Assembly (NCBI GenBank): GCA_965116885.1
Contig: OZ220741.1
Location: 3,104,001 to 3,168,000, forward strand
Length of the DNA: 64,000 nucleotides
Reading direction: 5' to 3'
Source: Candidatus Latescibacterota bacterium
Lineage (GTDB): Bacteria; Latescibacterota; UBA2968
The notes beneath the pieces were generated by a model. It had not been told where the DNA came from. It searched no databases and worked only from the letters and a program-made list of their open reading frames with translations. The translations under genes and the position numbers were made by a program. This document shows positions 46,928 through 64,000 of the stretch, one piece after another (the stretch's first letter is position 1; each line of letters opens with the position of its first letter).

Positions 46928-47000
46928 GTACTTGCTCTTGAGCGATTTGCTTGCTACGTTACTCGTGAGCGAGCAAACCCTTTGAATTGGAATATTGGAT

Positions 47001-48128: not shown

Positions 48129-48129
48129 C

Positions 48130-49215
48130 ATGGCCGATCATACTTACTTCATTGTCGATAGCCACTTAGATCTCGCCTTTTGCGCCATTCAGGTCAATCG
48201 CGACCTCACGCAACCTGCGGCAACCGTGCGGGTACACGATTCGGAACTGACTACGCGCAGTTTTGGGTCGTGTACGACGACGTTTCCCGAGTTGCACAAG
48301 GGGCGTGTGGGGATTGTGTTTGGCACGGTGATGTCGCGTATTGATACCAATGATCGCTGGACGCGCACGGGGATGTGGGATCAGACGCAGTGTTATGGTG
48401 TCGGGAGGGGGCATTATGCTTTTTACAAGGCGATGGAACGGCGTGGGATTATTCGGCAGATTCATACGGTTGAGGATTTGGACGCCTGTGTTGCGGCGTG
48501 GACGCAGCCTTCGGCAGATACCCCCATCGGGTTGGTGCTGGCAATGGAAAGCGCCGATCCGATTCTCGATCCAGAGCAGGTGTCCGAATGGCGCGATTTG
48601 GGCTTGAAAATGGTGAGTATTTCGCATTATGGCGTGAGTTCTTATTGCCACGGAACAGGGACAGAAGGGGGATTGCTGGATCGGGGCAGGCCGTTGCTGG
48701 ACGCGCTCAAAGACGCTGGTATTATTGTGGATTTGACGCATACCACGGATCAGGCTTTCTGGGAAATTCTCGATTATTACGACGGGCCGGTGGCTGCAAG
48801 CCATCACAATTGCCGGGCACTGACGCCGGGGCAGCGGCAGTTGACTGATGATATGATCCGCGCGATTGTTGAACGCGATGGAGTTATTGGCGCGGCTTTT
48901 GATGTATGGATGCTCGATCCAGAGTGGAAGCGGGGGGTGCCGTGTTATGAGCAGACGACAAAGGCGACGCTCGATACTGTGGTCGATCACATCGATCATG
49001 TGTGTCAGCTTGCTGGTAATGCGAATCATTCGGGTATTGGGACGGATCTGGATGGGGGGTATGGCCAGGAACAGTCGCCGAGAGATTTAAATACAATTGC
49101 CGATTTGCAGAATCTGGTGCCCATTTTTGAACGGCGCGGATATTCACCAGAAGATATTCAAAAGGTGTTGTCGGGGAATTGGGTGCGGTTGTTGAAGTCG
49201 GTGTGGAAAGATTGA
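48130..49215 (+). CDS. Membrane dipeptidase (peptidase M19) family protein, second paralogue
   Basis: DSHLD, MESAD, DLTH, ASHHNCR and GTDLDGG motifs. Confidence 0.88.
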   Translation: MADHTYFIVDSHLDLAFCAIQVNRDLTQPAATVRVHDSELTTRSFGSCTTTFPELHKGRVGIVFGTVMSRIDTNDRWTRTGMWDQTQCYGVGRGHYAFYKAMERRGIIRQIHTVEDLDACVAAWTQPSADTPIGLVLAMESADPILDPEQVSEWRDLGLKMVSISHYGVSSYCHGTGTEGGLLDRGRPLLDALKDAGIIVDLTHTTDQAFWEILDYYDGPVAASHHNCRALTPGQRQLTDDMIRAIVERDGVIGAAFDVWMLDPEWKRGVPCYEQTTKATLDTVVDHIDHVCQLAGNANHSGIGTDLDGGYGQEQSPRDLNTIADLQNLVPIFERRGYSPEDIQKVLSGNWVRLLKSVWKD

Positions 49216-49217
49216 TC

Positions 49218-49282
49218 CGCAGATGAACGCAGATGAACGCAGATAAAACGCGAATGTGTAGGGGCGATCCTCGTGGTCGCCC
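49218..49282 (+). repeat. (CGCAGATRAA)x3 short tandem repeat followed by a GTAG-type REP-like palindrome
   Basis: Directly visible; GTAG-GGGCGATC-CTCGT-GGTCGCCC at 49258-49282. Confidence 0.7.
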
Positions 49283-49301
49283 GCTTTCAAAGGATAAAAA
49301 T

Positions 49302-50759
49302 ATGTCAGAGAGACCAAATTTGTTGTTGATTACAACAGATCAACAGCGCGGAGATTGCCTCGGGTGTGATGGGCATCCGGCGCTGGAGACGCCGTATCTC
49401 GATGAAATGGCCGAGCGGGGGGCGCATTTCCCCCACGCATATACGTCGGTGCCGTCGTGTACGCCTGCACGCGCGGGGATTATCACGGGGATGGATCAAT
49501 GGAATCACGGGCGGTTGACGATGACAGGAGGCGATCCGCTGGAATATTCGGCGACATTGCCGGGGGAACTCGCAGCGGCGGGATATCACACGCAAGCCGT
49601 GGGTAAGATGCATCACGCCCCGCAGCGCAGGTTGTATGGCTTTCACCACATGGTATTGGATGAAAGTGGGCGGCGGATGGGAAATTTTGTCAGTGATTAT
49701 CATTTGTTTTTTGATCAGCACAAGGAAGGTGCTTACGGGTATCGGGATCACAGTATCGATTGGAATTCATGGATGGCTCGGCCCAGCCATTTGCCAGAGC
49801 ATTTGCATCCGACGCACTGGACGGCGAGCGAAGGGATTAAATTTTTGGAGCAACGCGATCCGACCAAACCATTTTTTATGTGGCTTTCATTTGCGCGGCC
49901 CCATTCGCCTTATGATGCGCCCCAGGCGTATTGGGATATGTATATCGACAATGATAATATCCCAAAAGCCGCTGTGGGAGACTGGGCTGCTGAGTTCGAC
50001 AAAAAAATCGCAGATGTCAATGCGCCGCGTTCGCACCGTTCCGATGCTGAAACGCACAGGGGACGTGCGGGGTATTACGGCAATATCACGTTTATCGATC
50101 ACCAGATTGGGCGCGTGTTGTACGAGTTGCGCCACCGGGATCCGCAAGCATACCGCAATACCCTGATTATTTTTACATCTGATCACGGCGATATGATGGG
50201 CGACCATCACCACTGGCGGAAGACGTATGCATACGAAGGGTCTGCGCGCATTCCATTTATTGTGAAGTATCCCGATACATGGCGGGATGTGGCGCGAGGG
50301 GTGAAGTACGATCATCCCGTGGAGTTGCGCGATGTGATGCCCACATTGCTCGATGCTGCCGGAGTCGATATACCAGCGTCTGTAGATGGGCGGTCTCTTC
50401 TGGATATTGCGCGGGGGGATGACGAGGGATGGCGCGCGTTTGTGCAGGGCGAGCATACGTCGTGTTATACAAGAGAACACGGCATGCAATATGTGACTGA
50501 TGGGCACGAGAAGTATATCTGGTTTCATCACACGGGAGAAGAACAGTTTTTTAATCTGGATGACGATCCATTGGAATGCTGCGAGTTGTCCAAAGATCCG
50601 GCGTATGAAACGCGCATTGCGATGTGGCGCAGGCGATTGGCAGAGGTGAATGAAAACCGGGGCGATCCGAGGGGGCAAAATGGAGAACTCGTGCCGCAGC
50701 CCGATGGCGCGCTGAGTCTGTCGCCAAATTATCAGAAATGGAAAGAAGCCGCACAATAA
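49302..50759 (+). CDS. Cytoplasmic S1 sulfatase (arylsulfatase-like)
   Basis: PNLLLITTDQQR, CTPAR, GKMH, RPHSP and SDHGDMMGDH motifs. Confidence 0.92.
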   Translation: MSERPNLLLITTDQQRGDCLGCDGHPALETPYLDEMAERGAHFPHAYTSVPSCTPARAGIITGMDQWNHGRLTMTGGDPLEYSATLPGELAAAGYHTQAVGKMHHAPQRRLYGFHHMVLDESGRRMGNFVSDYHLFFDQHKEGAYGYRDHSIDWNSWMARPSHLPEHLHPTHWTASEGIKFLEQRDPTKPFFMWLSFARPHSPYDAPQAYWDMYIDNDNIPKAAVGDWAAEFDKKIADVNAPRSHRSDAETHRGRAGYYGNITFIDHQIGRVLYELRHRDPQAYRNTLIIFTSDHGDMMGDHHHWRKTYAYEGSARIPFIVKYPDTWRDVARGVKYDHPVELRDVMPTLLDAAGVDIPASVDGRSLLDIARGDDEGWRAFVQGEHTSCYTREHGMQYVTDGHEKYIWFHHTGEEQFFNLDDDPLECCELSKDPAYETRIAMWRRRLAEVNENRGDPRGQNGELVPQPDGALSLSPNYQKWKEAAQ

Positions 50760-50772
50760 TTGTGAGGATGTT

Positions 50773-51243
50773 ATGGCCCAAAAATACTGGCTTGTAAAGT
50801 GCGAGTACGATGTGTGCTCTTTTGAAGAACTGAGCAATCGTCCCAGTGGGATTGGGTACTGGCGGGGGGTGCGCAATTATCAGGCGCGCAATTTTATTCG
50901 CGACGAAATGCAAAAAGGCGATCAGGCACTTTTTTATCAGTCGAATTGTAAAAATCCCGGTGTTGCCGGTATTGCGAATATTGTGCGTGCGGGATATCCC
51001 GATCCCTCTCAATTCGATGCGCGTCATGAGTATTACGATGAGAAGGCATCGAAAGAAGATCCGCGCTGGTTTTCTTTTGATGTGCAATGGTCAAAAGCAT
51101 TTGAGCCTTATGTCAGTCTGCAAGACCTCAAGAACAATCCCAGGCTCAAAGACATGAAGGTGGTTCAGCGCGGGCAGCGATTATCAATCCAGCCGGTGAC
51201 AAAGGAGGAGTTTGAGATTGTGTGCGAGATGGGGGGCATCTAG
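50773..51243 (+). CDS. EVE domain protein
   Basis: YWLVKCE, W.GVRNYQARNF, FYQSNC and RLSIQPV motifs. Confidence 0.9.
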   Translation: MAQKYWLVKCEYDVCSFEELSNRPSGIGYWRGVRNYQARNFIRDEMQKGDQALFYQSNCKNPGVAGIANIVRAGYPDPSQFDARHEYYDEKASKEDPRWFSFDVQWSKAFEPYVSLQDLKNNPRLKDMKVVQRGQRLSIQPVTKEEFEIVCEMGGI

Positions 51244-51310
51244 GGAGATAAGAAGACCAAAAGAAAATGAAATTCTTCAAAGACAATTCGTTGCAGAGAC
51301 AAGGTACATA

Positions 51311-51904
51311 ATGCCGCGTAAAAACAGGGTTCTTAGCATAGGCGATACCGCCCCCTTATTTACTCTCCCTTCGCATCAGTGGCAAGACGTATCGCTCGTA
51401 TCGTATCGAGGTAAAGAATATGTCATTCTGACGTTTTTTCGGGGGACCTGGTGAAAAAGAAGTCGTCGTCAGTTGGCGGCTGTGCAAGAACATATAGATG
51501 CTTATATGGAACATAATGCGATAGCGATCGCTATCGCAGCAGGACAGCAACTCTGTGAACTGCGCGAATATGCCGAACGAAGTGGTATCACCTATCCACT
51601 TCTGGCCGACGAAGACCGGGGTGCCATCAAAAGCTATGGGGTCTATCACTGGTACGGTCTGGCGTTTGCTCACAATCTCATTTACAACATTTTGCGTCCA
51701 GTGGAATTTTTCATCGACAAACTCGGCTATTCGTTATACAACTGGCTCGGTCTGCCAGACCACAGCCTTGTTCACAGTATTGCCCGTCCAGCGACGTTTA
51801 TCATCGATAAACTCGGCATTGTCAGATATATGTATATTGGTTCGAATCAGTTTGATTTAGCCGAACAGAAAGAAATTATCGAGCACTTGAAATTGCTACC
51901 ATAA
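51311..51904 (+). CDS. AhpC/TSA (peroxiredoxin-like) probable selenoprotein, UGA at 51452-51454
   Basis: GDTAPLFTL...FFRGTW-UGA-KRSRRQL reads in frame into YPLLAD...ARPATFIIDKLGIVRY; UGA sits at the redox Cys position; hairpin follows. Confidence 0.8.
51461..51481 (+). promoter_or_regulatory. Candidate bacterial SECIS hairpin
   Basis: AGTCGTC-GTCAGTT-GGCGGCT: 7-bp stem with G-U pairs and a G-initiated loop just after the UGA. Confidence 0.5.
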
Positions 51905-52044
51905 TTCAGGTTAAAAAATAAATAAAACTTGACAAAAAATAGGTGGTGTTCAAATATTCTTTTTATATTAAGGACTGTTTTTTCTCAGACTTAAGCAGGT
52001 GTCCTGTTACCTGTCGATAATTTGGATTAAAATGAGGTGATAGA

Positions 52045-53226
52045 GTGCAGATACAGATACCTTCTTCATATCAACCCGGGTATGAAAAAGCGCTTCTGAC
52101 CGATCCCGACCTCGCCAAAACGTACATCCAGCACACGCTTATTGGCGACCCCGATGCCGATGCTCTGATCAATGGATTAGCTGATATTGATGAGAAGCAA
52201 CAGGGCGAATTTATCAGGGCTGGGATGGACCTGGATGAGGAAAAACTGCGTGATGCGCCTCAGGAATTACGGGCGTTTTTTGAGAAGGTCGGGACGCCGC
52301 CCGCGTGGTTTGATCCCGAGTCAGTATATCCCGGATGCCGTGGCTTCCAGGCCTATTCAGATCTGTTTCTTACCTCGTTTGTCGTGGATATTATTGTACA
52401 GGGTTTCACGACGCTAATCAGCCAATCGTTTTTTACCACAGGAAGGCTGACCGATCAGGGGGTGCGGCGGCTAAAGCAAAATATACTTCACCTCTTAGAG
52501 ATTATGTTGCCGGGTGGCCTGGAGCGATACGGCGAGGGCTGGAAATTGTCTGTCCGTCTGCGGCTGGTGCATGCACAGGTCAGGCGGCATCTTCTCGCTT
52601 CTGAGGAGTGGGACTATGAAGCCCACGGCATGCCGATCAGTACTGCCCACATCGCGCTCGCGTCCTGTAATTTCTCCGGAATGCTGTTGCGGTCAGCCAC
52701 GCGAATTGGCGCACGTCTAAACGATGAAGAACGCGACAGTTTTATGCAGATATGGCGCTATACCGCTCACCTGATGGGTGTGCCCGAGGCACTCTTGTTC
52801 AGCAATGAGACCGAAGCCTGTGAAATATACCGCGTGGGTTACATCTGCGAGCCGCCTCCCGGTCTGGAAGCTATTGCTATGGCAAACTCGGTGATTGCCT
52901 CGGCTCCTTACGTGATCGGTATTAAAGACGAGAAAGAGCGAGATAATCTATCTGGTTTTGGGTACCGCCTTTCCCGAGCGTTGATTGGAGACGAACTCGC
53001 CGATCAACTCATGTTCCCCAAAAGTCGGACATCTGGGCCTGGGACACTGGTATATTTGCGGCTGAGGCGCAGAATCCAGGAGATCCTCGATGTCCTGCTG
53101 TGGTGGAGACCGAGTCATCGTACCCAAAGCTTCATGGCCTTGCTCGACGTATCTACGCTCGAAGAGCATAAAATCAGTTACCGATTACCCGACAAGCTAC
53201 ACGCAGACGAGGCGAAGCCGTGGTGA
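52045..53226 (+). CDS. Lcp/MpaB-family (DUF2236) heme oxygenase
   Basis: GDPDAD, PAWFD, TGRL...RRL, RLVHAQVR, GMPIS and WRYTAHLMGVP motifs. Confidence 0.82.
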   Translation: MQIQIPSSYQPGYEKALLTDPDLAKTYIQHTLIGDPDADALINGLADIDEKQQGEFIRAGMDLDEEKLRDAPQELRAFFEKVGTPPAWFDPESVYPGCRGFQAYSDLFLTSFVVDIIVQGFTTLISQSFFTTGRLTDQGVRRLKQNILHLLEIMLPGGLERYGEGWKLSVRLRLVHAQVRRHLLASEEWDYEAHGMPISTAHIALASCNFSGMLLRSATRIGARLNDEERDSFMQIWRYTAHLMGVPEALLFSNETEACEIYRVGYICEPPPGLEAIAMANSVIASAPYVIGIKDEKERDNLSGFGYRLSRALIGDELADQLMFPKSRTSGPGTLVYLRLRRRIQEILDVLLWWRPSHRTQSFMALLDVSTLEEHKISYRLPDKLHADEAKPW

Positions 53227-53304
53227 GGTATGACGGTCTTTATCCACCAACATATAATGAGGAAATCATTCGCTCGGTGAACGCGTCGTCGCACTTAATC
53301 CGAA

Positions 53305-55608
53305 ATGGTCGAAGGAGTGACTCTTTTGCAATTGGAACGCTACACCGCTGTCATTTTGCGCTATCGATGGTTGGTCGTTGCGCTTACAACACTGGTCATG
53401 CTGGCATTGACGGCAGGTGTTCGCTTCATCACCGTTACGAACGATTACCGCATTCTGTTTGGCGAAGACAATCCACAACTCCTCGCTTTTGACGCTCTGG
53501 AGAACACGTATTCGGCCTCCAATGCGGCACTGATTGCCATTGCGCCCCGACATGGCTCGGTGTTTACCCGCGAGGCGCTTGGCGCGGTTGAGGAATTGAC
53601 CGAAGCCGCGTGGCGAGCGCCATATTCCAGCCGCGTCAATTCCCTGACCAATTATACCCATAGCGAAGCACTCAATGACGATTTGGTGGTCGCTCCGCTC
53701 GTTGATGACGCATCTTCTCTGAGCGATGCCGATGTGGTGCGAATTGAGAAGACCGCGCTGGATGCAATTGAAATTGCCGGGCGTCTGGTGTCTCATGATG
53801 GGCGCACTGCCGGGGTGGCTATTAATTTTATCCTGCCCGAAAATCAGGACCAGGCAGTGATCGAAATTACCGATTATCTCAATTCGGTCCTGAGTCAAGC
53901 CCGCACGAGCCATCCGGATATCGATTATTACCTGACCGGCGATGTCGTCATGCATCGGACTTTTGCCGATGTCACGAAGAACGACATGGAGACTCTGACA
54001 CCTGTTGTGTTTCTCATCATTGTGGGTGCCACAATTCTTCTCCTGCGTTCGATTCTCAGCACTTTGGCCATTGTCGCCATGCTCGTGTTTGTCATCAATA
54101 CGACTATGGGATTTGCCGGCTGGAATGGCGTGGTGTTCAGCCCCACCAATGCCGGTGTGCCGATTATTGTCATGGTGATCGCCATCGCGGATTCGATCCA
54201 CGTTGTCACGAGTGTTTTATTGGGTATGAGGCGCGGTCTGGACAGAAATGCGGCGATTGTCGAGTCGATCCGCATCAATGCCTATCCGGTATTTATTACT
54301 TCGGTCACGACGGCGATTGGATTTCTCAGTCTGAATGCCTCAGATTCGCCACCTTTTCACGTTCTGGGCAATTACGTGGCATTTGGCGTTTTGTGCGCGC
54401 TTGTTTACACTATGACGCTATTGCCGGCATTGCTTTCGATTTTGCCGTTGCGCGCGTCTTCTGCCCAGTCCGAGGGGACGGCTTTTTTCGACCGTTTTGC
54501 CGACTTTGTCATCGCCCGTCGCAAATTTCTGCTCTGGTTCGTCACTGCGGTTGTCGTTGTCCTGATACTCGGCGTCCCCCGCATTGAGTTGAGCGATAAC
54601 ATGGCGCAGTATTTTGACGATCGCTACGAGTTCCGGCGCGATACGGATTATATTATTGATAATCTGACTGGTCTGGATAAGCTGGAATATTCGCTGAGTG
54701 CAGGGCGCGAAGGGGGTATTACCGATCCGGATTATCTGCGCCAGGTCGATGCTTTTGCCGAGTGGTACCGGGAACAACCCGAAGTGACCCATGTCCAGGC
54801 ATTTTCGGATATTATGAAACGTCTCAATAAAAATATGCACGGCGACGATCCAGCTTTTTATCGCTTGCCCAAAGATCCGGACCTCGCGGCGCAGTATCTG
54901 TTGCTCTACGAGTTTTCTCTTCCGTTTGGCAGCGATCTCAATGACCGCATAGATGTCGCGAAATCCGCTACGCGCCTGAGTGTCGTGACTAAGAATGCGT
55001 GGTCGCGAGATTTGCGTGAACTCGATAAGCGCGCACAGGTCTGGCTCCAGGCGAATGCACCCGCTTTTGCCAATGAAGCATCGGGTTTGAGCATTGTCTT
55101 TGCCCACTTATCTCTACGAAATATCAATAGCATGTTGCGCGGTACGATCACTGCGATGGCACTTATTTCGTTCATCCTGATCTGGATTTTCAAGAGTGTT
55201 CGGGTCGGTCTGCTCAGCTTGTTGCCCAATTTTATCCCCGCAATTATGAGCTTCGGTCTGTGGGGCTATCTCGTCGGTCATGTGGGCATTGCATCTTCGG
55301 TGGTGATCGCCGTTGTTTTTGGAATTGTCGTGGATGATACGATTCATTTTTTGAGCAAATATTTGAAGGCCCGGCGCGATGGCCTTCCCGCACCCGAGGC
55401 CGTGCGCTATACTTTTAACACGGTGGGCCATGCGTTATGGACGACGACCGCAGTGTTGTCAGTGGGCTTTCTGGTGTTCGCCACATCGGGATTTGAGGTT
55501 AGTTGGGCACTCGGCCTTTTGGTCACGGTTACGATTGTCTTCGCGCTTGTTGCCGACTTTTTACTTTTGCCAACTCTGCTGATTGCTATTGATCGGAGAA
55601 ATTCATGA
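53305..55608 (+). CDS. MMPL/RND-family lipid transporter
   Basis: Two RND halves; IADSIH, ITSVTTAIGFLSL and GIVVDDTIHF motifs. Confidence 0.9.
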   Translation: MVEGVTLLQLERYTAVILRYRWLVVALTTLVMLALTAGVRFITVTNDYRILFGEDNPQLLAFDALENTYSASNAALIAIAPRHGSVFTREALGAVEELTEAAWRAPYSSRVNSLTNYTHSEALNDDLVVAPLVDDASSLSDADVVRIEKTALDAIEIAGRLVSHDGRTAGVAINFILPENQDQAVIEITDYLNSVLSQARTSHPDIDYYLTGDVVMHRTFADVTKNDMETLTPVVFLIIVGATILLLRSILSTLAIVAMLVFVINTTMGFAGWNGVVFSPTNAGVPIIVMVIAIADSIHVVTSVLLGMRRGLDRNAAIVESIRINAYPVFITSVTTAIGFLSLNASDSPPFHVLGNYVAFGVLCALVYTMTLLPALLSILPLRASSAQSEGTAFFDRFADFVIARRKFLLWFVTAVVVVLILGVPRIELSDNMAQYFDDRYEFRRDTDYIIDNLTGLDKLEYSLSAGREGGITDPDYLRQVDAFAEWYREQPEVTHVQAFSDIMKRLNKNMHGDDPAFYRLPKDPDLAAQYLLLYEFSLPFGSDLNDRIDVAKSATRLSVVTKNAWSRDLRELDKRAQVWLQANAPAFANEASGLSIVFAHLSLRNINSMLRGTITAMALISFILIWIFKSVRVGLLSLLPNFIPAIMSFGLWGYLVGHVGIASSVVIAVVFGIVVDDTIHFLSKYLKARRDGLPAPEAVRYTFNTVGHALWTTTAVLSVGFLVFATSGFEVSWALGLLVTVTIVFALVADFLLLPTLLIAIDRRNS

Positions 55609-56414
55609 TACCAATACGACCAATACACCTGTTTTTCGCGTTTTGTCCAATTATTTTGTTTTGTCTCGGCGTGTCATCACCCGCTCGTTCCGAAACCGCA
55701 GAGGAAACCGGGTTGAAAATCGCTCAGGATTCCCAGGATCGCGAGAAGGGTTTTGGTAATTTTACAGCCCAACAAACCATGGTGTTGCGCAACAAACACG
55801 GGCAAGAGAGCCGTCGCCAACTCCGGGTAAAGGTTCTCGAGGTCTCCGAAGATGGCGACAAGAGCCTGTTTGTGTTCGATGAACCGCGCGATGTCAAGGG
55901 AACGGCGTTGCTTATTCACGCGCATAGGGAAAGCGCGGACGACCAATGGCTTTATTTGCCTGCTCTGAAACGCGTCAAGCGCATTAGTTCGTCCAACCAG
56001 TCCGGCTCTTTTATGGGAAGTGAATTTGCTTATGAGGACCTGACCCCTCAGGCTGTGGAGAAATTTACCTATCGTTACCTGCGCGACGAGGCATATAGCG
56101 ATTTGACATGCACGGTCTCAGAACGCTTTCCCGTGGATAAGAAATCGGGCTATAGCCGCCAGGTGGTCTGGAGGGATAAGGACGAACTTCGCGTCTGGAA
56201 AGTGGAGTATTACGATCGCAAGAATTCACATCTGAAGACGCTTACTCTGGAGAATTACGCGCAGTATCTGGATCGTTACTGGCGCGCTGGGGAGATGACG
56301 ATGGTCAATCATTTAACCGGGAAAAGTACGGTTCTGACCTGGACGGATTTTGAGTTTCAGACAGACCTCAATGATCGTGATTTCACACAAACTGGGCTGA
56401 AACGGGTGCGTTGA
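55605..56414 (+). CDS. LolA-like periplasmic outer-membrane sorting/carrier protein
   Basis: Signal peptide; PRDVKGTALL and DDQWLYLPALKRVKRISS...SFMGSEFAYEDL motifs. Confidence 0.88.
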   Translation: MIPIRPIHLFFAFCPIILFCLGVSSPARSETAEETGLKIAQDSQDREKGFGNFTAQQTMVLRNKHGQESRRQLRVKVLEVSEDGDKSLFVFDEPRDVKGTALLIHAHRESADDQWLYLPALKRVKRISSSNQSGSFMGSEFAYEDLTPQAVEKFTYRYLRDEAYSDLTCTVSERFPVDKKSGYSRQVVWRDKDELRVWKVEYYDRKNSHLKTLTLENYAQYLDRYWRAGEMTMVNHLTGKSTVLTWTDFEFQTDLNDRDFTQTGLKRVR

Positions 56415-57682
56415 TGTTACGTCGTACCGCTCTTCATATTTTAACTTTCGACGCTGTCTGGATTTTGTCCCTGGTCTTTGCCATTAGCGCAGGTGCCGAA
56501 ATTGGGATTGACCGCGATTTTTCCGGGCGCGTGAATATCGAAAGCCGATGGTTTCCCCAAGCCGGTGCCTTTTCCGGCCAGGGGGCTCATGCCATCGGTT
56601 TTTTTGTGGAACCCAAACTCTATCTTGCAGACGCTAAGGGTCGAAGCCTCACGCTATCGCCGTTCTTTCGCTACGACAATGCGGACTCACGCCGCACCCA
56701 TGCCGATCTGCGCGAAGCCTATTTTCTGATATTCGGCGAGATCGGCGATGGTGAATGGGAGTTGCGCGTGGGTATTGACCAGGTTTTCTGGGGCGTTACG
56801 GAATCGCAACATCTGGTCGATATTGTCAATCAGATCGATCTGGTTGAACATCCAAATGGAGAGACAAAGCTGGGACAACCGATGGTGAATATCACCTATT
56901 CCAGCGATTGGGGGATAGTGGAGTTTTTTGTTTTGCCGTATCACCGGGTGCGCACGTTTCCGGGGCAATCTGGCCGCCTGCGCCTTCCGCTCGTGGTGGA
57001 AGATGAGCAGGTCGAGTACGAGAGCGAAGGGGGGGAGTGGCATCTGGATTTCGCAGCCCGGTACAGTCAAAGTTTTGGGGTTGTCGATGTTGGCCTGAGT
57101 GTGTTCAACGGTACCAGCCGGGAGCCTTTTCTAATGCCGGGTTCGGACCGTAGTGGTGCGCCGGTATTGGTTCAGCACTACGATCAGATCCGTCAGTTTG
57201 GGCTGGATGCGCAACTCACTGTTGGCTCGTGGTTGTTCAAGCTCGAGGCTATTCAGCGTGCTGGTGCTCGCAATCTGCTCGGGATAAAAGAAGATTATGT
57301 GGCTTCCGTTTTTGGCGGCGAATACGCGTTTTATTCCGTCTTTGGCTCTGCAGTTGATGTCAGCTTGCTCGGCGAATGGAATTACGATGGGCGAGGGCGA
57401 AATGCGACGCCGAGTCGCTCGCCCAATACGCTCGAAAACGACTTCTTTTTTGCTACGCGCCTCGCGTTCAACGATGTTCAGAGTACTGAAATTGTCGCCA
57501 GTATTCTGGGAGATGTAGATCGCGCGACACGCGCACTATCTATGGAATTGGATCGACGCATCTCAGATCTGTTGTCTTTAAACCTGGAGGCGATTCACCT
57601 TCTCAGTATTGATAAAGCGGATATCCACTACGATACGCGGCGCGATAGTTTTATTGATCTGAGGCTGATTTACCATTTTTAG
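56411..57682 (+). CDS. Outer-membrane beta-barrel partner of the MMPL/LolA-like module
   Basis: Signal peptide, DLREAY, VFWGVTES.HLVDIVNQ.D, amphipathic strands, C-terminal YHF. Confidence 0.75.
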   Translation: MMLRRTALHILTFDAVWILSLVFAISAGAEIGIDRDFSGRVNIESRWFPQAGAFSGQGAHAIGFFVEPKLYLADAKGRSLTLSPFFRYDNADSRRTHADLREAYFLIFGEIGDGEWELRVGIDQVFWGVTESQHLVDIVNQIDLVEHPNGETKLGQPMVNITYSSDWGIVEFFVLPYHRVRTFPGQSGRLRLPLVVEDEQVEYESEGGEWHLDFAARYSQSFGVVDVGLSVFNGTSREPFLMPGSDRSGAPVLVQHYDQIRQFGLDAQLTVGSWLFKLEAIQRAGARNLLGIKEDYVASVFGGEYAFYSVFGSAVDVSLLGEWNYDGRGRNATPSRSPNTLENDFFFATRLAFNDVQSTEIVASILGDVDRATRALSMELDRRISDLLSLNLEAIHLLSIDKADIHYDTRRDSFIDLRLIYHF

Positions 57683-57702
57683 TTATTGCACAATCTCTAA
57701 TT

Positions 57703-57745
57703 AAAAAACAACCCCACCCGGAATACCCTGGCGGGGTTGTTTGGT
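57703..57745. terminator. Bidirectional terminator between convergent operons
   Basis: AAAAAACAACCCC...GGGGTTGTTTGGTT. Confidence 0.7.
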
Positions 57746-57794
57746 TGTATGAAGAAGCGATCACATTACCACAGGTGACATACCCGGTTCGCCT

Positions 57795-57828
57795 TGTGAA
57801 CTGCACGCATACGCCGAACGAATTGGTA
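57795..57828 (+). pseudogene. Decayed fragment of the AhpC/TSA gene (copy of 51554-51587)
   Basis: 30/34 nt identical; CELHAYAERIG versus CELREYAERSG. Confidence 0.7.
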
Positions 57829-57850
57829 GTCCTTCGGTCTAAGACGCACT

Positions 57851-59278
57851 TTACGCGTGACGCTTTGACACGGTCATGGGAACGGGAGCTTTCACCATGG
57901 AAAGCAGGAAGAGAGCGCTGACCCGTTCCTTGAGCGGACCGGGAGAGACAGTATCAAGTCGCAACCGCTGGGCGGTGCTCGCCAAAAAATAAACGCAGAC
58001 GCGCATGGCAAATTCCCTTCCTGTACATTGGCGGGTATCATAACCGAACGGCATGTAGGCACACGGAGGGCGCTCCGGCTGTGGGTCCTTCAGCCAGCGC
58101 TCTGGCCGAAATTCTTCGGGTTGATCCCAATATTGCGGGTTCCGATTGTGGGCGTCTATAACGCTCAACACCATCGTCCCTTTGGGAATACTATAGCCAC
58201 CGAGATCATAATCCTGCCTTGTGACCCGGTTCAGCACAGGTGCGGGAGCCCCAAGTCGCAGAGTCTCTGACATAATGGCCCTGGTATAGGAGAGCTTATC
58301 ATAATCTTCGACCATGATCTGACGATCACCCAGGACATCATCGACCTCCTCTTCCAAACGCCTGCGCACTTCGGGATAATAGGCGATGTGGCCCACCGCC
58401 TTCGTGAGCGCAATCAGCGTTGGATCGATCGGAATCGTGATGTTTTCGACCAGCAGATCGTGAACCTCAAGGTCGCTGAGAAGTCCCTCTCCATCCTCCC
58501 TGGTATTCGCATCTATCAGACGCGAAGCCATGCTGTAGGGGGCATGGGACCCATTGCGGACTTGTTCGATGGTCTTGTAGATCAAGGCACTCAATTCCCA
58601 GAACGATTTTTTGGAACTTCTGCTCCTTGGCAGGGGGAACTTTCTAAGCAGCGATGTGCCCGGAAGAGCGCAGAGTATCATGTCCTGCTTGTATCCCTCC
58701 ATCGCATCCACGACGACGCTCGGCCGGATAGCGTCGAGTGCGTTTCCGAGATTCATGCGAATAACGCAATGCGCCTGGAGATCTCTCAATTCCTTCCAGA
58801 GGTGAATCATCTGGCCAGGCTTCCAGCGTGCGTGCAGTGCCTGGATATTCTCAATGATTCGCGCTGAATGTGCCTCCAGGAACTTACGGTCCAGGAGCCC
58901 TGGCCCCATCAGTTTGAGCGACCTTTCGTAAAACGCATCATCGCTCCCGTTCAGGCCCAAAGTACATTCGACAAAAAGACTCTTCTTTTCCGGGTTCATG
59001 TAGTCTATCGGGTTGAACTTGCGAAACGCCTGTACGGGTGGACCGTCTGGATTGTCTGGATCAGGGATTTTTGCTGTTAAAACTTCGTGTATGAGATCCA
59101 GATCATACACGATGCAGTAATTCAGGACCGGCATCTTGTAGTAGCTGATGTCACCGTATTTCTCGCGAAGCTCTTTCAGAAAACGGGAAAAATCCGACAT
59201 ATGTTTTATCAGATTGTACAGCTTGGGTCCCCTGGGACCGGGAGGCAATTTTGGGCTTTTTTTGATTGACTTTCGCAT
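57851..59278 (-). CDS. Cytochrome P450 with a non-canonical I-helix
   Basis: LPPGP, ETLR, FRPERW and PFGYDTRQCTG heme-thiolate motif; GAGGAGG RBS. Confidence 0.9.
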   Translation of the reverse strand: MRKSIKKSPKLPPGPRGPKLYNLIKHMSDFSRFLKELREKYGDISYYKMPVLNYCIVYDLDLIHEVLTAKIPDPDNPDGPPVQAFRKFNPIDYMNPEKKSLFVECTLGLNGSDDAFYERSLKLMGPGLLDRKFLEAHSARIIENIQALHARWKPGQMIHLWKELRDLQAHCVIRMNLGNALDAIRPSVVVDAMEGYKQDMILCALPGTSLLRKFPLPRSRSSKKSFWELSALIYKTIEQVRNGSHAPYSMASRLIDANTREDGEGLLSDLEVHDLLVENITIPIDPTLIALTKAVGHIAYYPEVRRRLEEEVDDVLGDRQIMVEDYDKLSYTRAIMSETLRLGAPAPVLNRVTRQDYDLGGYSIPKGTMVLSVIDAHNRNPQYWDQPEEFRPERWLKDPQPERPPCAYMPFGYDTRQCTGREFAMRVCVYFLASTAQRLRLDTVSPGPLKERVSALFLLSMVKAPVPMTVSKRHA

Positions 59279-59326
59279 ACGTCAATCCTCCTCATTTAGA
59301 TCTATGTCATAGCAATTCAAAAGCTA

Positions 59327-62300
59327 TTAGATTTGTGTCGCGTTTGCGCCGGGATGCCCGTTTTTTCGTTCCGAAAAATGGAAATACACCGTGGCCAGTG
59401 CGGGCACGATCATCATCAGAATCGCCGTTGCAAAGACGATTCCAAATCCCACTGACACGCCTAACGGGATTAAAAACTGCGCCTGAATACTTTGCTCGAG
59501 GATGAGTGGCGTGAAGCCGAGGAAGGTGGTCGCCGAGGTCACAAAAATCGGGCGAAAGCGCTCTTTGGCACCATTGATGATCGCATCTTGTATTGATACT
59601 TCCTCCTTCAACCGCTCGTTGATGAAATCGATCATCACGAGAGAATCATTCACGACGACTCCGCTGAGTCCGATGATTCCCCACATGGACGTAATGCTCA
59701 AATCAAGCCCCATGATCAGGTGGCCCAGGATGGCGCCGACGAGCCCGAAGGGGATGACGGCCATGATGATGAGGGGTTTGGTGTAGGAACCAAGAGGAAT
59801 CGCCAGCAACGCATATATCACCAGCAAAGCAAGGACCAGGCCGCGCCCGAGTGCGTCGAAGGATTCGAGTTGTTGCTGCTGCTCGCCTCCGAACGTATAG
59901 GTGAGGCCCGGGTGAATGTTCGCGAGATCAGGGAGGATCGTACTTGTGAGGATGTTGGTCACCTCCTCCCCCGTGATCACGGCAGGATCTACATCTGCAG
60001 TGACGATGACAACGCGCTGGCCGTTTTTCCGCCGAATTGACGAGGGTGAATCGCTCAAATTTACGGAAGCAACACGGCTCAGAGGCACTTCGGCTCCGGC
60101 CGGTGTACGGATCAGATAGCCCTCGACATCAGCGATTGCGTCTCGTTCCACCGCGGGAAGGCGCACGTACACACGCACATCTTCCTTGCCCCGTTGCACT
60201 CGAAGTGCTTCGTTGCCGAAGAACGCAGATCGCACCTGCCGGGCCAGTCCATCGAGCGTGAGACCGAGCGTTCGTGCTTCTGGCCGCAACTCAAGCTGGA
60301 TCTCCTGAAGGCCAGCGGCATGATCCGATTGAACATCGAAGACCCCCTGGAACCCGAGGAGACTTTCCACCACCGCGTCACCGATTGAACCGAGACGATC
60401 GGGGTCCGGATGGGAAAGCTCGATCTGGACAGAAGAGCCTAAGTCGATCAGATCTGCGGAGAACGTGAGGCTGCGAGCTACTGGTACAATGCCGACCTCT
60501 TCCCGCCATGCCTGTAGAAAGTCGCCCGAGGTAATATCCCTCCGCTCAGTTGGCTGCAGCTTGAACTCCACAGCGGCGATATGGGCCTGCGGCTTCAGGC
60601 TGGGTTCCTGTGCGATGCCTCCTCCGACCATCTGAGGTCTTGCGCCGACGGTCAAGTTCACCCCGACCACCAGCGGCTCGACATTCTCGGGCTGTCCTGC
60701 AGACAGCCGATTGATGGCCCGATGTCCCGCAGCTTCGATTTCCCTGGCCAGTCCGCCAGTCCGCTGAGCTAGCGTTCCTTCCGGCATTTCGAGGTTGGCC
60801 GTCACGATGTCGGCCTCAACAGGTTCGTTCAAGATCATTCCAATGATTCCCGCGGGGATCAGGGCGACGCAGAGAATGATCATTCCTACGCCACTTGCGA
60901 TCACCACGGCAGGTTGGCCTGTAGCCAGCCGTAGTATCCGGTCCAGGGGGCCTGCCACGAAGCGCTTCAACTCCCTATCCACGCGGTATTGGATGCGAGA
61001 GAAGAAGCGATCGAAGGGGTTGTTCGGTTTCCACTCAGGACCTGGCAAGTGGGACAAGTGATTTGGCAAGATCAACAGTGATTCCATCAGGGAAATCAAG
61101 AGTACGGTGATCAAGATCACCGGAACCGGACCCATCATACGTCCGATTGGCCCGGGTAGGAAAAGGAGAGGTGTGAAAGCAGCCACTGTCGTGAGGACTG
61201 CGAAGATCACAGGTCCCTTGATCCGTTGGGTACCGCGGATCGCCGCGAGGACCCCTGCCGTGCCCTTCTGCCGTTCGGCATGGATATACTCGGCCACGAC
61301 GATGGCGTCATCCACCACGATGCCAACTGCGAGAATGAAAGCGAATAGGGAGATCGTGTTGATGGAGACATTGAGGATCAGCATGACTGCCAACGCGCCA
61401 ACAAAGGAAATGCCAATTCCGGCGGCGACCCACAGGGCAAGCCGAATTTGTAGAAAGAGGGTTAGAGATACGAGGACAAGCATCAGCCCCAGAAAGCCGT
61501 TTTTGAGGAGCAGGTTGAGTCGGTCCTCGTAGATATCCGCGTCGTTATTCCAGATCTCTATCGTTACACCAGTGGGAAGCGAGGGGATCACGTACAGGTG
61601 CAAGTGTTCTTCTATGGCCTCCACGACATCCAGCACTTGTTCCCCTTCGGACCGGTACACCTCCACGAACGCGGCTCGCTGCCCGTTGTAGCGGGTGATC
61701 ATATCTATATCCTGGAAGCCATCGCGCACTTTGGCGATGTCGCCCAGACGAACCAGCGTACCGTCATCCCGGCTCAAGACTACGATATCCTCAAAATCCT
61801 GCTGGTCATAGTTCCGGCCCGTAGTTCGGACCCGCACTTCTGCATCCCTCGTCTCGATTCTGCCGGCTGATAGCTCAAGGGATTCGTTGCGAACTTCCCG
61901 CGAAATGTCCTCAAGGGTCAGTCTCAGAGCCTGCAGCCGGCGGAGAGGCACTTCGATCGAGATCTCGTAGTTGCGTACGCCACTCGTCTCGACATAAGAG
62001 ACCTCGGAAAGGGAGGAGAATTCGTCCTCAATTCGGTGGGCCAGTTCCTTGAGCGTGCGCTCGGATACGTCCCCGTAAAGAACCAGACGCATCACGCTCT
62101 GGCGATTAGTCATCTGTCTGATTTCTGGGCGCTCGGCCCCGATGGGAAAGGTCTGGATTCGGCTGATCGCAGACTCAATATCGTCCAGTGCACGGCTGAT
62201 GTTTGTGCCGATCTTCAATTCTGCCATGACGGATGCGTAGCCCTCCGTCGCGATAGCCGTGACCTCTTTCACTTCTTCAAGTGTTTCGACATGTTCCTCG

Positions 62301-62533
62301 ATCTTGAGGACAATCGACTCTTCCACTTCATCCGGGGTGGCGCCGGGGTAGGGCACCGATATCTCGATGTGGTCGAAAGAAAGCACTGGGAACGCTTCCT
62401 GCACCAGGCTATTCATCGAGATGAGTCCCGCCACCAGTATAAAGACCATCAGAAGATTGGCGGCGACGCCGTTCCTGACCATATAAGCTATGAGACCGCG
62501 CTGTTCTTGAGCGGAAATGTCGTCCTGGCTCAC
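59327..62533 (-). CDS. AcrB/AcrD/AcrF-family RND permease
   Basis: VAANLLM, YPGATP.EVEE, GIVVDDAIVV, GVVVNDS and RFRPI motifs. Confidence 0.93.
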   Translation of the reverse strand: MSQDDISAQEQRGLIAYMVRNGVAANLLMVFILVAGLISMNSLVQEAFPVLSFDHIEISVPYPGATPDEVEESIVLKIEEHVETLEEVKEVTAIATEGYASVMAELKIGTNISRALDDIESAISRIQTFPIGAERPEIRQMTNRQSVMRLVLYGDVSERTLKELAHRIEDEFSSLSEVSYVETSGVRNYEISIEVPLRRLQALRLTLEDISREVRNESLELSAGRIETRDAEVRVRTTGRNYDQQDFEDIVVLSRDDGTLVRLGDIAKVRDGFQDIDMITRYNGQRAAFVEVYRSEGEQVLDVVEAIEEHLHLYVIPSLPTGVTIEIWNNDADIYEDRLNLLLKNGFLGLMLVLVSLTLFLQIRLALWVAAGIGISFVGALAVMLILNVSINTISLFAFILAVGIVVDDAIVVAEYIHAERQKGTAGVLAAIRGTQRIKGPVIFAVLTTVAAFTPLLFLPGPIGRMMGPVPVILITVLLISLMESLLILPNHLSHLPGPEWKPNNPFDRFFSRIQYRVDRELKRFVAGPLDRILRLATGQPAVVIASGVGMIILCVALIPAGIIGMILNEPVEADIVTANLEMPEGTLAQRTGGLAREIEAAGHRAINRLSAGQPENVEPLVVGVNLTVGARPQMVGGGIAQEPSLKPQAHIAAVEFKLQPTERRDITSGDFLQAWREEVGIVPVARSLTFSADLIDLGSSVQIELSHPDPDRLGSIGDAVVESLLGFQGVFDVQSDHAAGLQEIQLELRPEARTLGLTLDGLARQVRSAFFGNEALRVQRGKEDVRVYVRLPAVERDAIADVEGYLIRTPAGAEVPLSRVASVNLSDSPSSIRRKNGQRVVIVTADVDPAVITGEEVTNILTSTILPDLANIHPGLTYTFGGEQQQQLESFDALGRGLVLALLVIYALLAIPLGSYTKPLIIMAVIPFGLVGAILGHLIMGLDLSITSMWGIIGLSGVVVNDSLVMIDFINERLKEEVSIQDAIINGAKERFRPIFVTSATTFLGFTPLILEQSIQAQFLIPLGVSVGFGIVFATAILMMIVPALATVYFHFSERKNGHPGANATQI

Positions 62534-63723
62534 GGATCTCCTCCATCCGCAATTCGCACCGACATGCCTTCCGTGGCGATCTGAATCCCACCCACGACGA
62601 CAGGTTGGCCCGCTTCGAGTGCTCCGATCACGAATACCTCATCGCCGGAACGTTGTAGGATGCGTACCGGGACTATAGTCACAGTGCTATTGCGTATCGC
62701 CCAGACTTCGTTGCCAGTCCTGAGCGCCGGGGGAGGCACTCTGTAATACCTATCTGGAGCGATTCCCTGAATTTGCACTTCCACGAACTTACCCACGAGA
62801 AGAGGCGGGACAGAACCCATGTCTGCCGCCTCGACCTGGGTCCCGCTCGTGAAAGGATCCGGAACGCGCACGATTACGTCGATGGTCCGCGTCTGTTTGT
62901 CCAGGGATGCCTCCGCCCGATCCACATAGCCTTTCCAGGCGTAGCTTCTATTACCGTATTCAGCTATGACACGAGCCTTGACCCGCCTATCTCCGTCGCC
63001 CGCTTCCAGCTTCCAAAGGTCGGGAATAAGGGCCGTATTGGCATCGGAGAGGGGAACCACCACCTCTACTGTATTGGTCGCATAAAGTCGCCCTACACTC
63101 TGACCGGCTACCACAAACTGCCCCATATCTATCGATTCTGCCTGCACGACACCTCTGAAAGGCGCGCGGACTTTTGTGCGTGCCAAAGCCAACTCGGCAT
63201 CGGCGAGCACAGCACTATCTCTCGCCACTGCGGCTCGGGCTGCCTCGAGCTGAGGCTCCCATAATGCAAGGGGATTGGCCTTGGCTATATCCGTTTGGCT
63301 GCGTCTGAATTGGGCGTACTCAGCGCGTGCGATCTGGGCTTCTTCATTCGTCCGGAGGAGTGCGACATGCTGTGCGACCACGTTGGCGCGGGCTTGCTTT
63401 ACTCTGTTGCGGTAGTCGGCGTCATTGATGCGAAAGAGAATTTGTCCCTTGCGGACTCGTCCACCGCTCTGAAAGGTAGGAGCGACCCAGATAATCTTAC
63501 CGTTGATTTCGGCGGCGACATCTATCTCTGCGACGGGCCGAACCGTTCCTGCCCCGTACACAGGGATGGCACCGGTACCGGCTATTACGGGAGTTGTGAC
63601 TGCGAAGGGAATTTGGGAGGGAAGAGGCCGGAGTTCTGGCTCGGGCCTTAACCAGACCATAAACCCGGCAAAAAACAGGGATATGAGGAGGATAGCACCG
63701 GCCGGGAACAAGCGTCGATTCAT
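62530..63723 (-). CDS. RND periplasmic adaptor (membrane fusion protein)
   Basis: N-terminal TM helix, GTVRP, lipoyl halves flanking a coiled coil, LARTKVRAPF. Confidence 0.9.
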   Translation of the reverse strand: MNRRLFPAGAILLISLFFAGFMVWLRPEPELRPLPSQIPFAVTTPVIAGTGAIPVYGAGTVRPVAEIDVAAEINGKIIWVAPTFQSGGRVRKGQILFRINDADYRNRVKQARANVVAQHVALLRTNEEAQIARAEYAQFRRSQTDIAKANPLALWEPQLEAARAAVARDSAVLADAELALARTKVRAPFRGVVQAESIDMGQFVVAGQSVGRLYATNTVEVVVPLSDANTALIPDLWKLEAGDGDRRVKARVIAEYGNRSYAWKGYVDRAEASLDKQTRTIDVIVRVPDPFTSGTQVEAADMGSVPPLLVGKFVEVQIQGIAPDRYYRVPPPALRTGNEVWAIRNSTVTIVPVRILQRSGDEVFVIGALEAGQPVVVGGIQIATEGMSVRIADGGDP

Positions 63724-63757
63724 CTCTTATCTCTCTTGGCTCATAGCGGTCGATGGG

Positions 63758-64000
63758 CTACCATTCTTGCGTTTCATCTTCGTCGTGGAGTGCCGTCGGT
63801 AGCTTGTATGAAATTTCATACTTGCCCAAATTCGACGTTTTCAGGATGATGTCGAAATGGGTGAAATCATGATGGTGAAACCAGCGCAGGTATAGCTTCT
63901 GAAGTACCCGCTCTACACGGTACTTTAATCGCATAAACGGAAGTATCCGAATTCGTTTCCCAGCTGGGAACCTGAATAAATCGGCCATATAGTTGCCGAT
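63758..64000 (-). CDS. C-terminus of a second Lcp/MpaB-family oxygenase (5' end outside window)
   Basis: IGNYMADLFRFP...ISYKLPTALHDEDETQEW aligns with IGDELADQLMFP...ISYRLPDKLHADEAKPW of 52045..53226; frame open to the window edge. Confidence 0.75.
   Translation of the reverse strand: MGNYMADLFRFPAGKRIRILPFMRLKYRVERVLQKLYLRWFHHHDFTHFDIILKTSNLGKYEISYKLPTALHDEDETQEW

Follow-up and report, generated by a model that had tools for sequence, protein, structure and literature searches.

The characterised enzymes that share the fold of MpaB, the latex clearing protein Lcp and t-anethole oxygenase cleave carbon-carbon double bonds into two carbonyls, and those met with in this work are a rubber degrader, a fungal natural product enzyme and an anethole oxygenase. 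The fungal enzymes, MpaB and MpaB' from mycophenolic acid biosynthesis, are linked to the proteins described below through the Pfam family title alone; MpaB' is intracellular and bound to the endoplasmic reticulum, cleaves a double bond of a prenyl chain during biosynthesis and has no coupled transporter. The t-anethole oxygenase of Stenotrophomonas maltophilia (PDB ID: 8S1J), presumably an alkene-cleaving enzyme, is shorter (~300 residues) and takes an aryl-propenyl substrate. Lcp K30 (PDB ID: 5O1L/5O1M), whose setting is rubber degradation, acts outside the cell (PMC5522427). In a stretch of 64,000 nucleotides from an uncultured, sponge-associated Candidatus Latescibacterota bacterium (contig OZ220741.1, G000:C1:3104001-3168000 of a single-contig 5.56-Mb genome; hereafter the window) we found two genes of this family, oxy1 and oxy2, each of them encoded together with lipid transporter genes in an operon. 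Oxygenase and transporter are found linked in several phyla, the second operon is by sequence comparison a strain-specific insertion, and we lean, at somewhat better than even chances, towards the two operons being separate oxidise-and-transport modules for a hydrophobic isoprenoid lipid.

The transport genes of the first operon (module 1) have uncharacterised precedents, namely AmeABCD from Castellaniella defragrans (PMC6394551) and TOL_3187 with its porin from Thalassolituus oleivorans (PMC6304351). AmeABCD and a set of Pseudomonas DUF1302/DUF1329/BNR/RND genes (10.1101/2020.07.04.188060) comprise an HAE3-type protein of the RND (resistance-nodulation-division) superfamily, a LolA-superfamily protein and a DUF1302-type outer-membrane protein, a composition that module 1 appears to share, and are tied to hydrophobic compounds including monoterpenes. 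Module 1 differs from AmeABCD in that its operon is led by an MpaB oxygenase and has no fourth component of the AmeC/BNR type (none of its four genes carries such a domain); furthermore, its LolA-like protein is a PF17131 protein of 269 residues, whereas AmeABCD possesses a full DUF1329 protein of ~450 residues, and its barrel has 423 residues compared to 605 in the AmeABCD-type set. TOL_3187, which is induced on n-C28, a very hydrophobic substrate, covers the same three functions with an MMPL protein fused to a LolA-like part and a porin-like gene adjacent: in our case MMPL and LolA-like protein are separate, no such oxygenase is reported beside TOL_3187, and the function of TOL_3187 is unproven. 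Triterpenoid lipids are carried from the inner towards the outer membrane by the RND transporters HpnN, for hopanoids, and BstA, for sterols; the module 1 MMPL protein scores far below both NCBIfam equivalogs (89.7 and 37.2 bits against cut-offs of 751 and 1400). As for the second operon (module 2), permease and adaptor of an AcrAB-TolC-type pump are present, whereas the gene for the outer-membrane factor is not. Every part belongs to a known family; their coupling with transporters and with triterpenoid-type tailoring genes, and the movement of module 2 as a cassette, are not described in the literature searched, in which we also found no study of this oxygenase subfamily or operon architecture, in line with a first-pass annotation of the window that knew of no such system. 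The features of the locus, called from an open reading frame (ORF) listing and from Pfam and NCBIfam scans, are as follows:

51929..51958, plus strand: promoter-like site TTGACA-18-AATATT in the gap 5' of oxy1, from a consensus scan alone and weak
52045..53226, plus strand: oxy1, 393-residue MpaB/Lcp-family haem oxygenase, predicted cytoplasmic (PF09995, 67.5 bits)
53305..55608, plus strand: MMPL/HAE3-like RND-superfamily inner-membrane transporter, 767 residues (PF03176, 101 bits)
55605..56414, plus strand: LolA-like periplasmic protein, 269 residues (PF17131, 206.5 bits; DUF1329, 35.6 bits)
56411..57682, plus strand: probable outer-membrane beta-barrel, 423 residues, distantly DUF1302-like (PF06980, 31.3 bits against a cut-off of 23.2)
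57687..57793, no strand: copy 1 of an imperfect direct repeat of ~110 bp, from local alignment with copy 2
57706..57742, no strand: G+C-rich hairpin inside repeat copy 1, likely a bidirectional terminator (sequence and fold)
57794..64000 and on to window-equivalent 65134, minus strand: inserted 7.34-kb cassette oxy2-MFP-RND-P450 (alignments with relatives)
57851..59278, minus strand: cytochrome P450, 475 residues, non-canonical I-helix (PF00067, 188 bits)
59327..62533, minus strand: AcrB-type RND permease, 1068 residues (PF00873, 530 bits)
62530..63723, minus strand: periplasmic adaptor (membrane fusion protein, MFP), 397 residues (TIGR01730, 147.6 bits against a cut-off of 94.9)
63758..64000, minus strand: C-terminal 80 codons of oxy2 (whole gene 63758-64936, 392 residues, PF09995, 55.8 bits)
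65135-65248 in window-equivalent numbering, beyond the window, no strand: copy 2 of the direct repeat, from local alignment with copy 1

The gene orders read by the first-pass annotation, oxygenase, MMPL, LolA-like carrier and outer-membrane barrel on the plus strand and oxygenase, MFP, RND permease and P450 on the minus strand, are borne out by the ORF listing together with the Pfam and NCBIfam matches, and within each operon neighbouring genes overlap or almost touch. The annotation had also taken the frame cut off at the window end for a second oxygenase, and the sequence past 64000 does yield a full PF09995 protein of 392 residues, the fragment itself matching oxy1 with a BLASTP E-value of 1e-11. 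The terminator that it had placed between the operons agrees with the hairpin at 57706-57742, which has an A-run on its 5' side and a T-rich run on its 3' side: the 118-nt stretch that contains it reaches -36.2 kcal/mol (z = -2.78), with the consensus scan having caught the inner part of the hairpin alone. Promoter-like sites were fewer in the real sequence than in shuffles in the same kind of scan, and Rfam gave no match in 51000-64000 at E-values up to 0.1.

By sequence, both oxygenases belong to the MpaB/Lcp family: each exceeds the PF09995 gathering cut-off of 23 bits, and they are 40% identical to one another over their full length. As a single sequence oxy1 retrieved Lcp K30 from the PDB with an E-value of 2e-9, and a profile of 62 sequences did so with 1e-32, at an identity of ~17-18%. 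The AlphaFold2 (AF2) model of oxy1 (predicted local distance difference test score, pLDDT, 95; predicted template modelling score 0.93) matched 5o1l/5o1m in Foldseek with an E-value of 1e-8 and template modelling (TM) scores of 0.66-0.74, indicating an Lcp-type, all-helical globin-like fold; t-anethole oxygenase was the second and weaker match (Foldseek probability 1.00, TM 0.45-0.57), and these two are the sole clear structural relatives of the model.

In the profile alignment, His176 of oxy1 corresponds to the proximal haem ligand His198 of Lcp, Arg173 and Arg180 to Arg195 and Arg202, and Asp35 and Asp39 to Asp56 and Asp60, all five being invariant or at least 90% conserved across the 62 sequences; Arg142, equally at least 90% conserved, corresponds to the distal Arg164. 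Along with family and fold, oxy1 therefore shares with Lcp the proximal histidine, the two Arg-Asp salt-bridge pairs and the distal arginine, and the motif RLVHAQVR, in which the first-pass annotation had located the haem histidine, aligns with the Lcp motif RMVHAAVR containing His198. Its further suspicion, that the asparagine of RRLKQN replaces the catalytic threonine, also holds: Asn146 is aligned with Thr168 and Gln145 with Lys167. In Lcp, a 3/3 globin fold, His198, Arg164 and Thr168 are described as crucial for the active site, with 2% activity left in a Thr168 mutant, the Arg-Asp pairs as structural salt bridges, and Lys167 as conserved in just 59% of Lcps (PMC5522427). From these likenesses we infer that oxy1 and oxy2 may bind haem and cleave C=C bonds. 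Inspection by eye revealed no hydrophobic or twin-arginine N-terminus in either protein, in agreement with the lack of a signal peptide noted earlier for oxy1, and in contrast to Lcp both are probably cytoplasmic; both are single-domain proteins of ~390 residues without an output domain, for which NCBIfam has no model.

Matches to oxy1 are numerous (1,852 in the database at E <= 1e-5; 140 clusters at E <= 1e-30 in a library clustered at 50%), with relatives of ~47-55% identity in records titled Acidobacteriota, Chloroflexota, Nitrospirales, Entotheonella, Paracoccaceae and Methylovulum. For oxy2 there is one match of 98%, every other being at most 64% identical; its relatives in other phyla lie at 57-64%, and the few matches with a source name are from Acidobacteria, Holophagales or Gammaproteobacteria. 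An oxy2-clade gene was found at E <= 1e-100 in 4 of 301 sampled Acidobacteriota genomes, so that it is rare there.

In order to place the linkage of oxygenase and transporter in a wider context, 84 loci were analysed, 78 around relatives of oxy1 and 6 around relatives of oxy2. The adjacency that had been noted in this one genome is conserved across genomes: a transporter gene of the RND superfamily is encoded no more than 3 kb from the oxygenase in 55 of the 84 loci, which fall under 8 of 12 taxon labels, and several oxygenase clades with strong support show the link. The counts per label are 20/23 in Latescibacterota, 19/24 in Chloroflexota, 9/22 in Acidobacteriota (13/22 if an adaptor within 5 kb is counted), 2/3 each in Gemmatimonadetes-labelled and Paracoccaceae loci, 1/2 in unclassified ones, 1/1 each in Nitrospirales and Chlorobiota, 0/2 in Methylovulum and 0/1 each in Entotheonella, Thalassobaculaceae and Rhodospirillales. 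As a yardstick, the 19 RND-superfamily genes of the 5.56-Mb genome place ~3% of its length within 3 kb of such a gene by our own estimate. A quick IQ-TREE analysis of 101 oxygenases (frames below 300 bits or 330 residues left out, those above 410 residues trimmed to the last 400) resolved an oxy1 clade of 27 rows and an oxy2 clade of 14 rows, both with a support of 100 in the Shimodaira-Hasegawa-like approximate likelihood ratio test (SH-aLRT). MMPL adjoins 26 of the 27 oxy1-clade genes; in the oxy2 clade RND/MFP and/or P450 adjoin 12, MMPL plus P450 one, and SQS/CrtI-like genes one. Of eight metagenome loci of the oxy2 clade, seven carry RND, P450, SQS-like, CrtI-like or sulfotransferase genes next to the oxygenase, and the eighth ends at the oxygenase itself. 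MMPL is joined by LolA-like and barrel genes in 22/26 Latescibacterota- or Gemmatimonadetes-labelled loci, in none of the 24 Chloroflexota loci and under no other label, which would fit a periplasm-spanning relay that is needed only where an outer membrane exists.

Several arrangements in these loci stand apart. Tandem or double oxygenases occur in 11 of the 84, among them two close relatives with an extra oxygenase ~80% identical to oxy1 directly 5' of its orthologue (L006 8666-9850, L008 8650-9849). In three loci from Latescibacterota, Paracoccaceae and an unclassified metagenome-assembled genome (MAG), genes of a distinct oxygenase clade precede one for an acyltransferase_3 protein with ankyrin repeats, behind which a P450 is encoded (L038, L050, L053; ~11.1-14.2 kb). 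In five further loci (L052, L069 [Methylovulum], L063, L072, L029) the oxygenase is followed by a sulfotransferase in place of a transporter, and four of these also encode a conserved protein of ~320 residues without a Pfam match.

Alignments of nine relatives (~89-93% DNA identity) all end at window position 57793, and in 4/4 relatives examined (L004-L007) the sequence resumes at window-equivalent 65134-65156: missing from these four is the 7.34-kb insert, which comprises P450, RND, MFP and oxy2 along with the region upstream of oxy2. The insert is flanked by imperfect direct repeats (~110 bp, ~82% identical) that are present as a single copy in relatives, and the terminator hairpin sits within the repeat. 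No match above 36% identity to the cassette P450 was found in 40 related genomes, 20 of them from the same genus, and the quick tree places oxy2 among genes of Acidobacteriota, of a Paracoccaceae MAG and of metagenomes, apart from those of Latescibacterota. The sequence comparisons thus indicate that the cassette was acquired horizontally and landed in the terminator region 3' of module 1, and this landing site accounts for the convergent arrangement and the shared terminator. That the junctions are not an assembly artefact follows from contigs of an independent DNA run, made in another study, which span the two of them (L106 1429-3160, 6 differences; L106 8918-9597, 3 differences); no empty-site contig across the cassette was found in four runs, which says little, as contigs drop rare variants. 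The built-in "twin" system of the first-pass annotation does not survive this result, and we have dropped the idea of the two operons as one regulated unit. A foreign base composition of the cassette was also considered and rejected: at 54.1% G+C against a genome mean of 51.1%, it lies at the 88th percentile of 7.3-kb windows. In the A+T-rich gap 83-113 bp 5' of the oxy2 start, an exact 12-mer occurs twice, 19 bp apart (window-equivalent 65019-65049, L106 9019-9049), with no match in the 64-kb window at up to one mismatch; the pair lies just 5' of the ends of the RNA-library contigs described below and may be an operator or promoter element.

The cassette P450 has its best PDB match in CYP170A1-type enzymes (3DBG/3EL3; E 2e-28), and its best NCBIfam matches are terpenoid P450s, far under the cut-off (NF051859 albaflavenone monooxygenase, 145 vs 700). 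It shares with CYP170A1 the ExxR motif (ETLR) and the Cys loop (FGYDTRQCTG), the latter with Asp at the usual Gly position. The standard oxygen-activation motif of the P450 I-helix is (A/G)Gx(D/E)T(T/S), and P450s without the I-helix threonine typically do not activate O2 in the standard way: the cassette protein reads IPIDPT against the aligned PGSET of CYP170A1, the usual acid-alcohol (acid-Thr) pair being replaced, so that the term "atypical", given to this P450 at the outset, is justified. P450s adjoining oxy2-clade genes elsewhere share a D-A/N-P motif at the same place, and the feature is thus conserved in this context. The Pfam scan detected no ferredoxin or reductase gene in the cassette. 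As for the pump, the RND permease has a 60%-identical paralogue at genome position 5096606-5099788, and the 14 OEP domain matches found genome-wide correspond to seven open frames elsewhere, the closest ~390 kb away.

In module 1, the MMPL protein scores above the PF03176 cut-off and below that of TIGR00921 (HAE3; 156 bits vs 351.9), and it shows weak sterol-sensing-domain matches in Pfam. The LolA-like gene overlaps the MMPL stop and its product has a hydrophobic N-terminus; the PF17131 and DUF1329 matches of this protein and the DUF1302 match of the barrel are all over their cut-offs, with no NCBIfam model for either. The barrel protein combines a signal-peptide-like N-terminus with an aromatic C-terminus (...IYHF), and its AF2 model, of low confidence (pLDDT 51, 12-row alignment), displays ~20 beta strands after an N-terminal helix; its closest named ESM Atlas cluster is DUF1302.

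A connection to isoprenoid lipids is provided by gene neighbourhoods outside the window. An SQS_PSY or HpnE/CrtI-like amine oxidase gene lies within 5 kb in 16 of the 84 loci, in two of them (L015, L018) with the HpnE/CrtI-like gene inside the operon; the other neighbours include P450 (8 loci), sulfotransferase (6) and the acyltransferase-ankyrin protein (5), and sterol-methyltransferase-like (SMT-like) and Rieske genes also recur elsewhere. In a genome of the same family (G021), an SQS-like gene abuts the oxygenase-MMPL-LolA-barrel operon. The genome under study itself contains a second lipid locus (G000:C1:5096606-5104062, L102 6606-14062), which begins with the paralogous RND gene and continues with a 700-residue P450::GPP34 protein, a methyltransferase with a sterol-methyltransferase C-terminal domain (scoring 53.9 bits) and, in convergent orientation, a Rieske/KshA_C oxygenase; 19 kb away, a further MFP is encoded that shares 72% identity with the one in the cassette. 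A genome of the same order (G028; L104, G028:C4:158001-177900) unites the themes of the cassette and of this second locus in one contiguous block of Fe-ADH, Rieske/KshA_C, amine oxidase, SMT-like methyltransferase, P450::GPP34, MpaB oxygenase, RND and MFP. No specific NCBIfam match was obtained for the SMT-like, Rieske or P450::GPP34 genes. An HpnC-HpnD-HpnE squalene-synthesis operon above the NCBIfam cut-offs is present at G000:C1:823946-827353 (L093 5946-9353), and searches of the same genome for a squalene or oxidosqualene cyclase domain returned none. Among 41 genomes (40 relatives and this one), SQS_PSY occurs in 39, PF09995 in 30, Sterol_MT_C in 17 and a cyclase domain over the cut-off in 3, with 0/21 in the own genus. 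By guilt by association, these neighbourhoods point to an acyclic triterpenoid or sterol-like lipid, and, with biosynthetic neighbours and an HpnCDE set in this genome, an endogenous lipid is favoured no less than the host-derived one that had been considered earlier. As separate observations, an SMT-like gene is present in 8 of the 21 genomes of the genus without a cyclase over the cut-off in any of the 21, and squalene is seemingly made yet not cyclised. Bacterial sterol methyltransferases are known from sponge microbiomes, and 13 of 24 metagenomic ones are described in clusters or MAGs that also hold a cyclase (PMC10070321).

The stretch is present in 20 of 24 listed sequencing runs from 10 studies, mostly labelled sponge metagenome. 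In two metatranscriptome runs of one study, contigs extend over the barrel end of operon 1 and over the whole set of four cassette genes, ending ~55 nt 5' of the oxy2 start; the adjacent sulfatase gene is covered by DNA runs and lacks metatranscriptome cover, a single bin of one run excepted (0.64). These contigs, which give neither levels nor strands, hint moderately at transcription. One RNA-library contig of 4,703 nt, of which the last 1,159 nt are aligned here, ends on the LolA-like and barrel genes (L106 1-1159, window 56001-57159) and hints at co-transcription of operon 1, provided that it is collinear back into oxy1.

The substrate, the direction of transport and the co-operation of the parts are what we infer from these data, and the reading to which we lean would run as follows. 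The b-haem-type oxygenase would act at the cytoplasmic face on a membrane-dissolved isoprenoid with trisubstituted double bonds, which it would oxygenate or cleave, a step proposed because of the chemistry of the family, and in each module the RND-superfamily machine would take the lipid out of the inner membrane. In module 1, MMPL would pick up the product and hand it to the LolA-fold carrier and from there into or through the barrel; this relay is suggested because of the domain families and the analogous AmeABCD and TOL_3187 sets. In module 2, the atypical P450 may process the product further before MFP and RND expel it via one of the seven OEP-family proteins. Module 1 is the ancestral one in this Latescibacterota lineage and would offer a complete relay from inner membrane through periplasm to outer membrane, with module 2 as an AcrAB-type pump in need of an unlinked outer-membrane factor. 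The likeliest substrate would be an acyclic, squalene-derived triterpenoid or a sterol-like lipid with trisubstituted double bonds, and the likeliest direction outward, to the outer membrane or cell surface; by analogy, the biosynthetic use of MpaB' may be closest in spirit to such a role. The dedicated system for isoprenoid oxidation and trafficking envisaged by the first-pass annotation is hence retained in part: MpaB/Lcp family membership, the conserved transporter link and the isoprenoid-type neighbourhoods speak for it, and its built-in twin layout is gone.

Several results weigh against this reading and need to be set beside it. Within the window, no isoprenoid-synthesis gene adjoins either module, HpnCDE being 2.3 Mb away, and the cassette holds no OEP gene. 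At the distal haem site, Thr168 and Lys167 of Lcp are replaced by Asn and Gln in oxy1, so that the chemistry may differ from C=C cleavage, and we found no biochemical datum for any member of either oxygenase clade in the literature searched. The linkage has exceptions: 29 of the 84 loci lack any RND-superfamily gene at up to 3 kb from the oxygenase, and one Acidobacteriota subclade (n = 8) has none of the scored neighbours. The loci of related genomes are not independent, and the counts hence overstate the support; moreover, the ORFs of the loci were clustered, recurrent clusters were named by Pfam from one representative each, and the tally was made by six-frame searches with hidden Markov models built from these same clusters. 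Finally, MMPL/LolA-like/porin sets elsewhere have been tied to external hydrophobic substrates, either by their induction on these or by being required for growth on them (PMC6304351, PMC6394551, 10.1101/2020.07.04.188060), and by this analogy uptake or tolerance is a live alternative.

In the case of uptake, barrel, LolA-like protein and MMPL would import a sponge sterol or terpenoid, the oxygenase would open a side-chain double bond and the fragments would be metabolised. Such a role would suit the sponge metagenome runs of the ten studies, the growth of organisms with related cassettes on external hydrophobic substrates in the three papers just cited, the presence of SMT-like and KshA-like Rieske genes in a genome in which no cyclase was found, and the weak sterol-sensing-domain matches of MMPL. 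RND-superfamily pumps of known function are nevertheless exporters, the annotated loci have no beta-oxidation, CoA-ligase or aldehyde-dehydrogenase genes with the modules, the neighbouring genes are of a biosynthetic kind (SQS-like, desaturase-like, sulfotransferase, acyltransferase), and the same oxygenase subfamily occurs in Methylovulum, in a record whose title names no host; we consider uptake with catabolism unlikely, yet the foremost of the rival explanations. The pumps could instead confer tolerance by expelling toxic hydrophobic compounds such as sponge terpenoids, with oxygenases and P450 inactivating what enters, a role like the one suggested for AmeABCD in the metabolism of monoterpenes: AmeABCD, whose HAE3, LolA-superfamily and DUF1302 composition module 1 appears to share, confers monoterpene tolerance (PMC6394551), and mobility and strain specificity, both seen in the cassette, are frequent traits of resistance modules. 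This appears rather improbable to us, given the tight and specific pairing of oxygenase clade and transporter type in the quick tree and the recurring SQS-like, HpnE-like and SMT-like neighbours, which fit a dedicated pathway better than broad detoxification. A slightly smaller chance still falls to the MpaB-like proteins being haem-based sensors, or enzymes of other chemistry, that act with the transporters: the globin fold of Lcp resembles globin-coupled sensors (PMC5522427) and the Thr168/Lys167 pair is not kept, whereas every retrieved relative with a solved structure or a characterised function is an oxygenase (Lcp and, by its PDB title, t-anethole oxygenase), the arginine essential in Lcp, Arg164, is kept and nearly invariant, and an output domain is lacking. 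To a coincidental adjacency of genes that do not work together we give very little credence: the two operons do adjoin one another only through the accident of insertion, but the genes overlap or nearly abut within each operon and the pairing is seen again in several phyla and in several clades with strong support.

Beyond this locus, we tentatively suggest, as an idea distinctly short of an even chance, that MpaB-type haem dioxygenases might form a widespread and previously unrecognised class of bacterial triterpenoid-tailoring enzymes. In cyclase-less HpnCDE squalene makers they would cleave or oxygenate the acyclic chain or a sterol-like delta-24 side chain, with the MMPL-LolA-barrel or AcrAB-type routes delivering the carbonyl lipids to the surface and the SMT-like, Rieske and atypical P450 partners belonging to the same pathway: a mobile "make, oxidise, export" toolkit that would have spread horizontally among several phyla (Latescibacterota, Acidobacteriota, Chloroflexota, Paracoccaceae and others). 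If true, this would add an enzymatic step and export routes to bacterial triterpenoid biology, give squalene a use in bacteria that make it and in which a cyclase was not found, and bear on which members of the sponge holobiont make or modify sterol-like biomarkers (PMC10070321). Two large, well-conserved bacterial oxygenase clades without known function are in any event now delineated, and the cassette provides a clean, datable case of a lipid module moving between phyla.

The surroundings of the two modules are of a different kind. The region 5' of oxy1 (window 46995-51243) encodes a tandem pair of M19 membrane dipeptidases, one sulfatase and a protein with an EVE domain, and two further sulfatase genes are located 3' of the cassette; the flanking block is syntenic in relatives.

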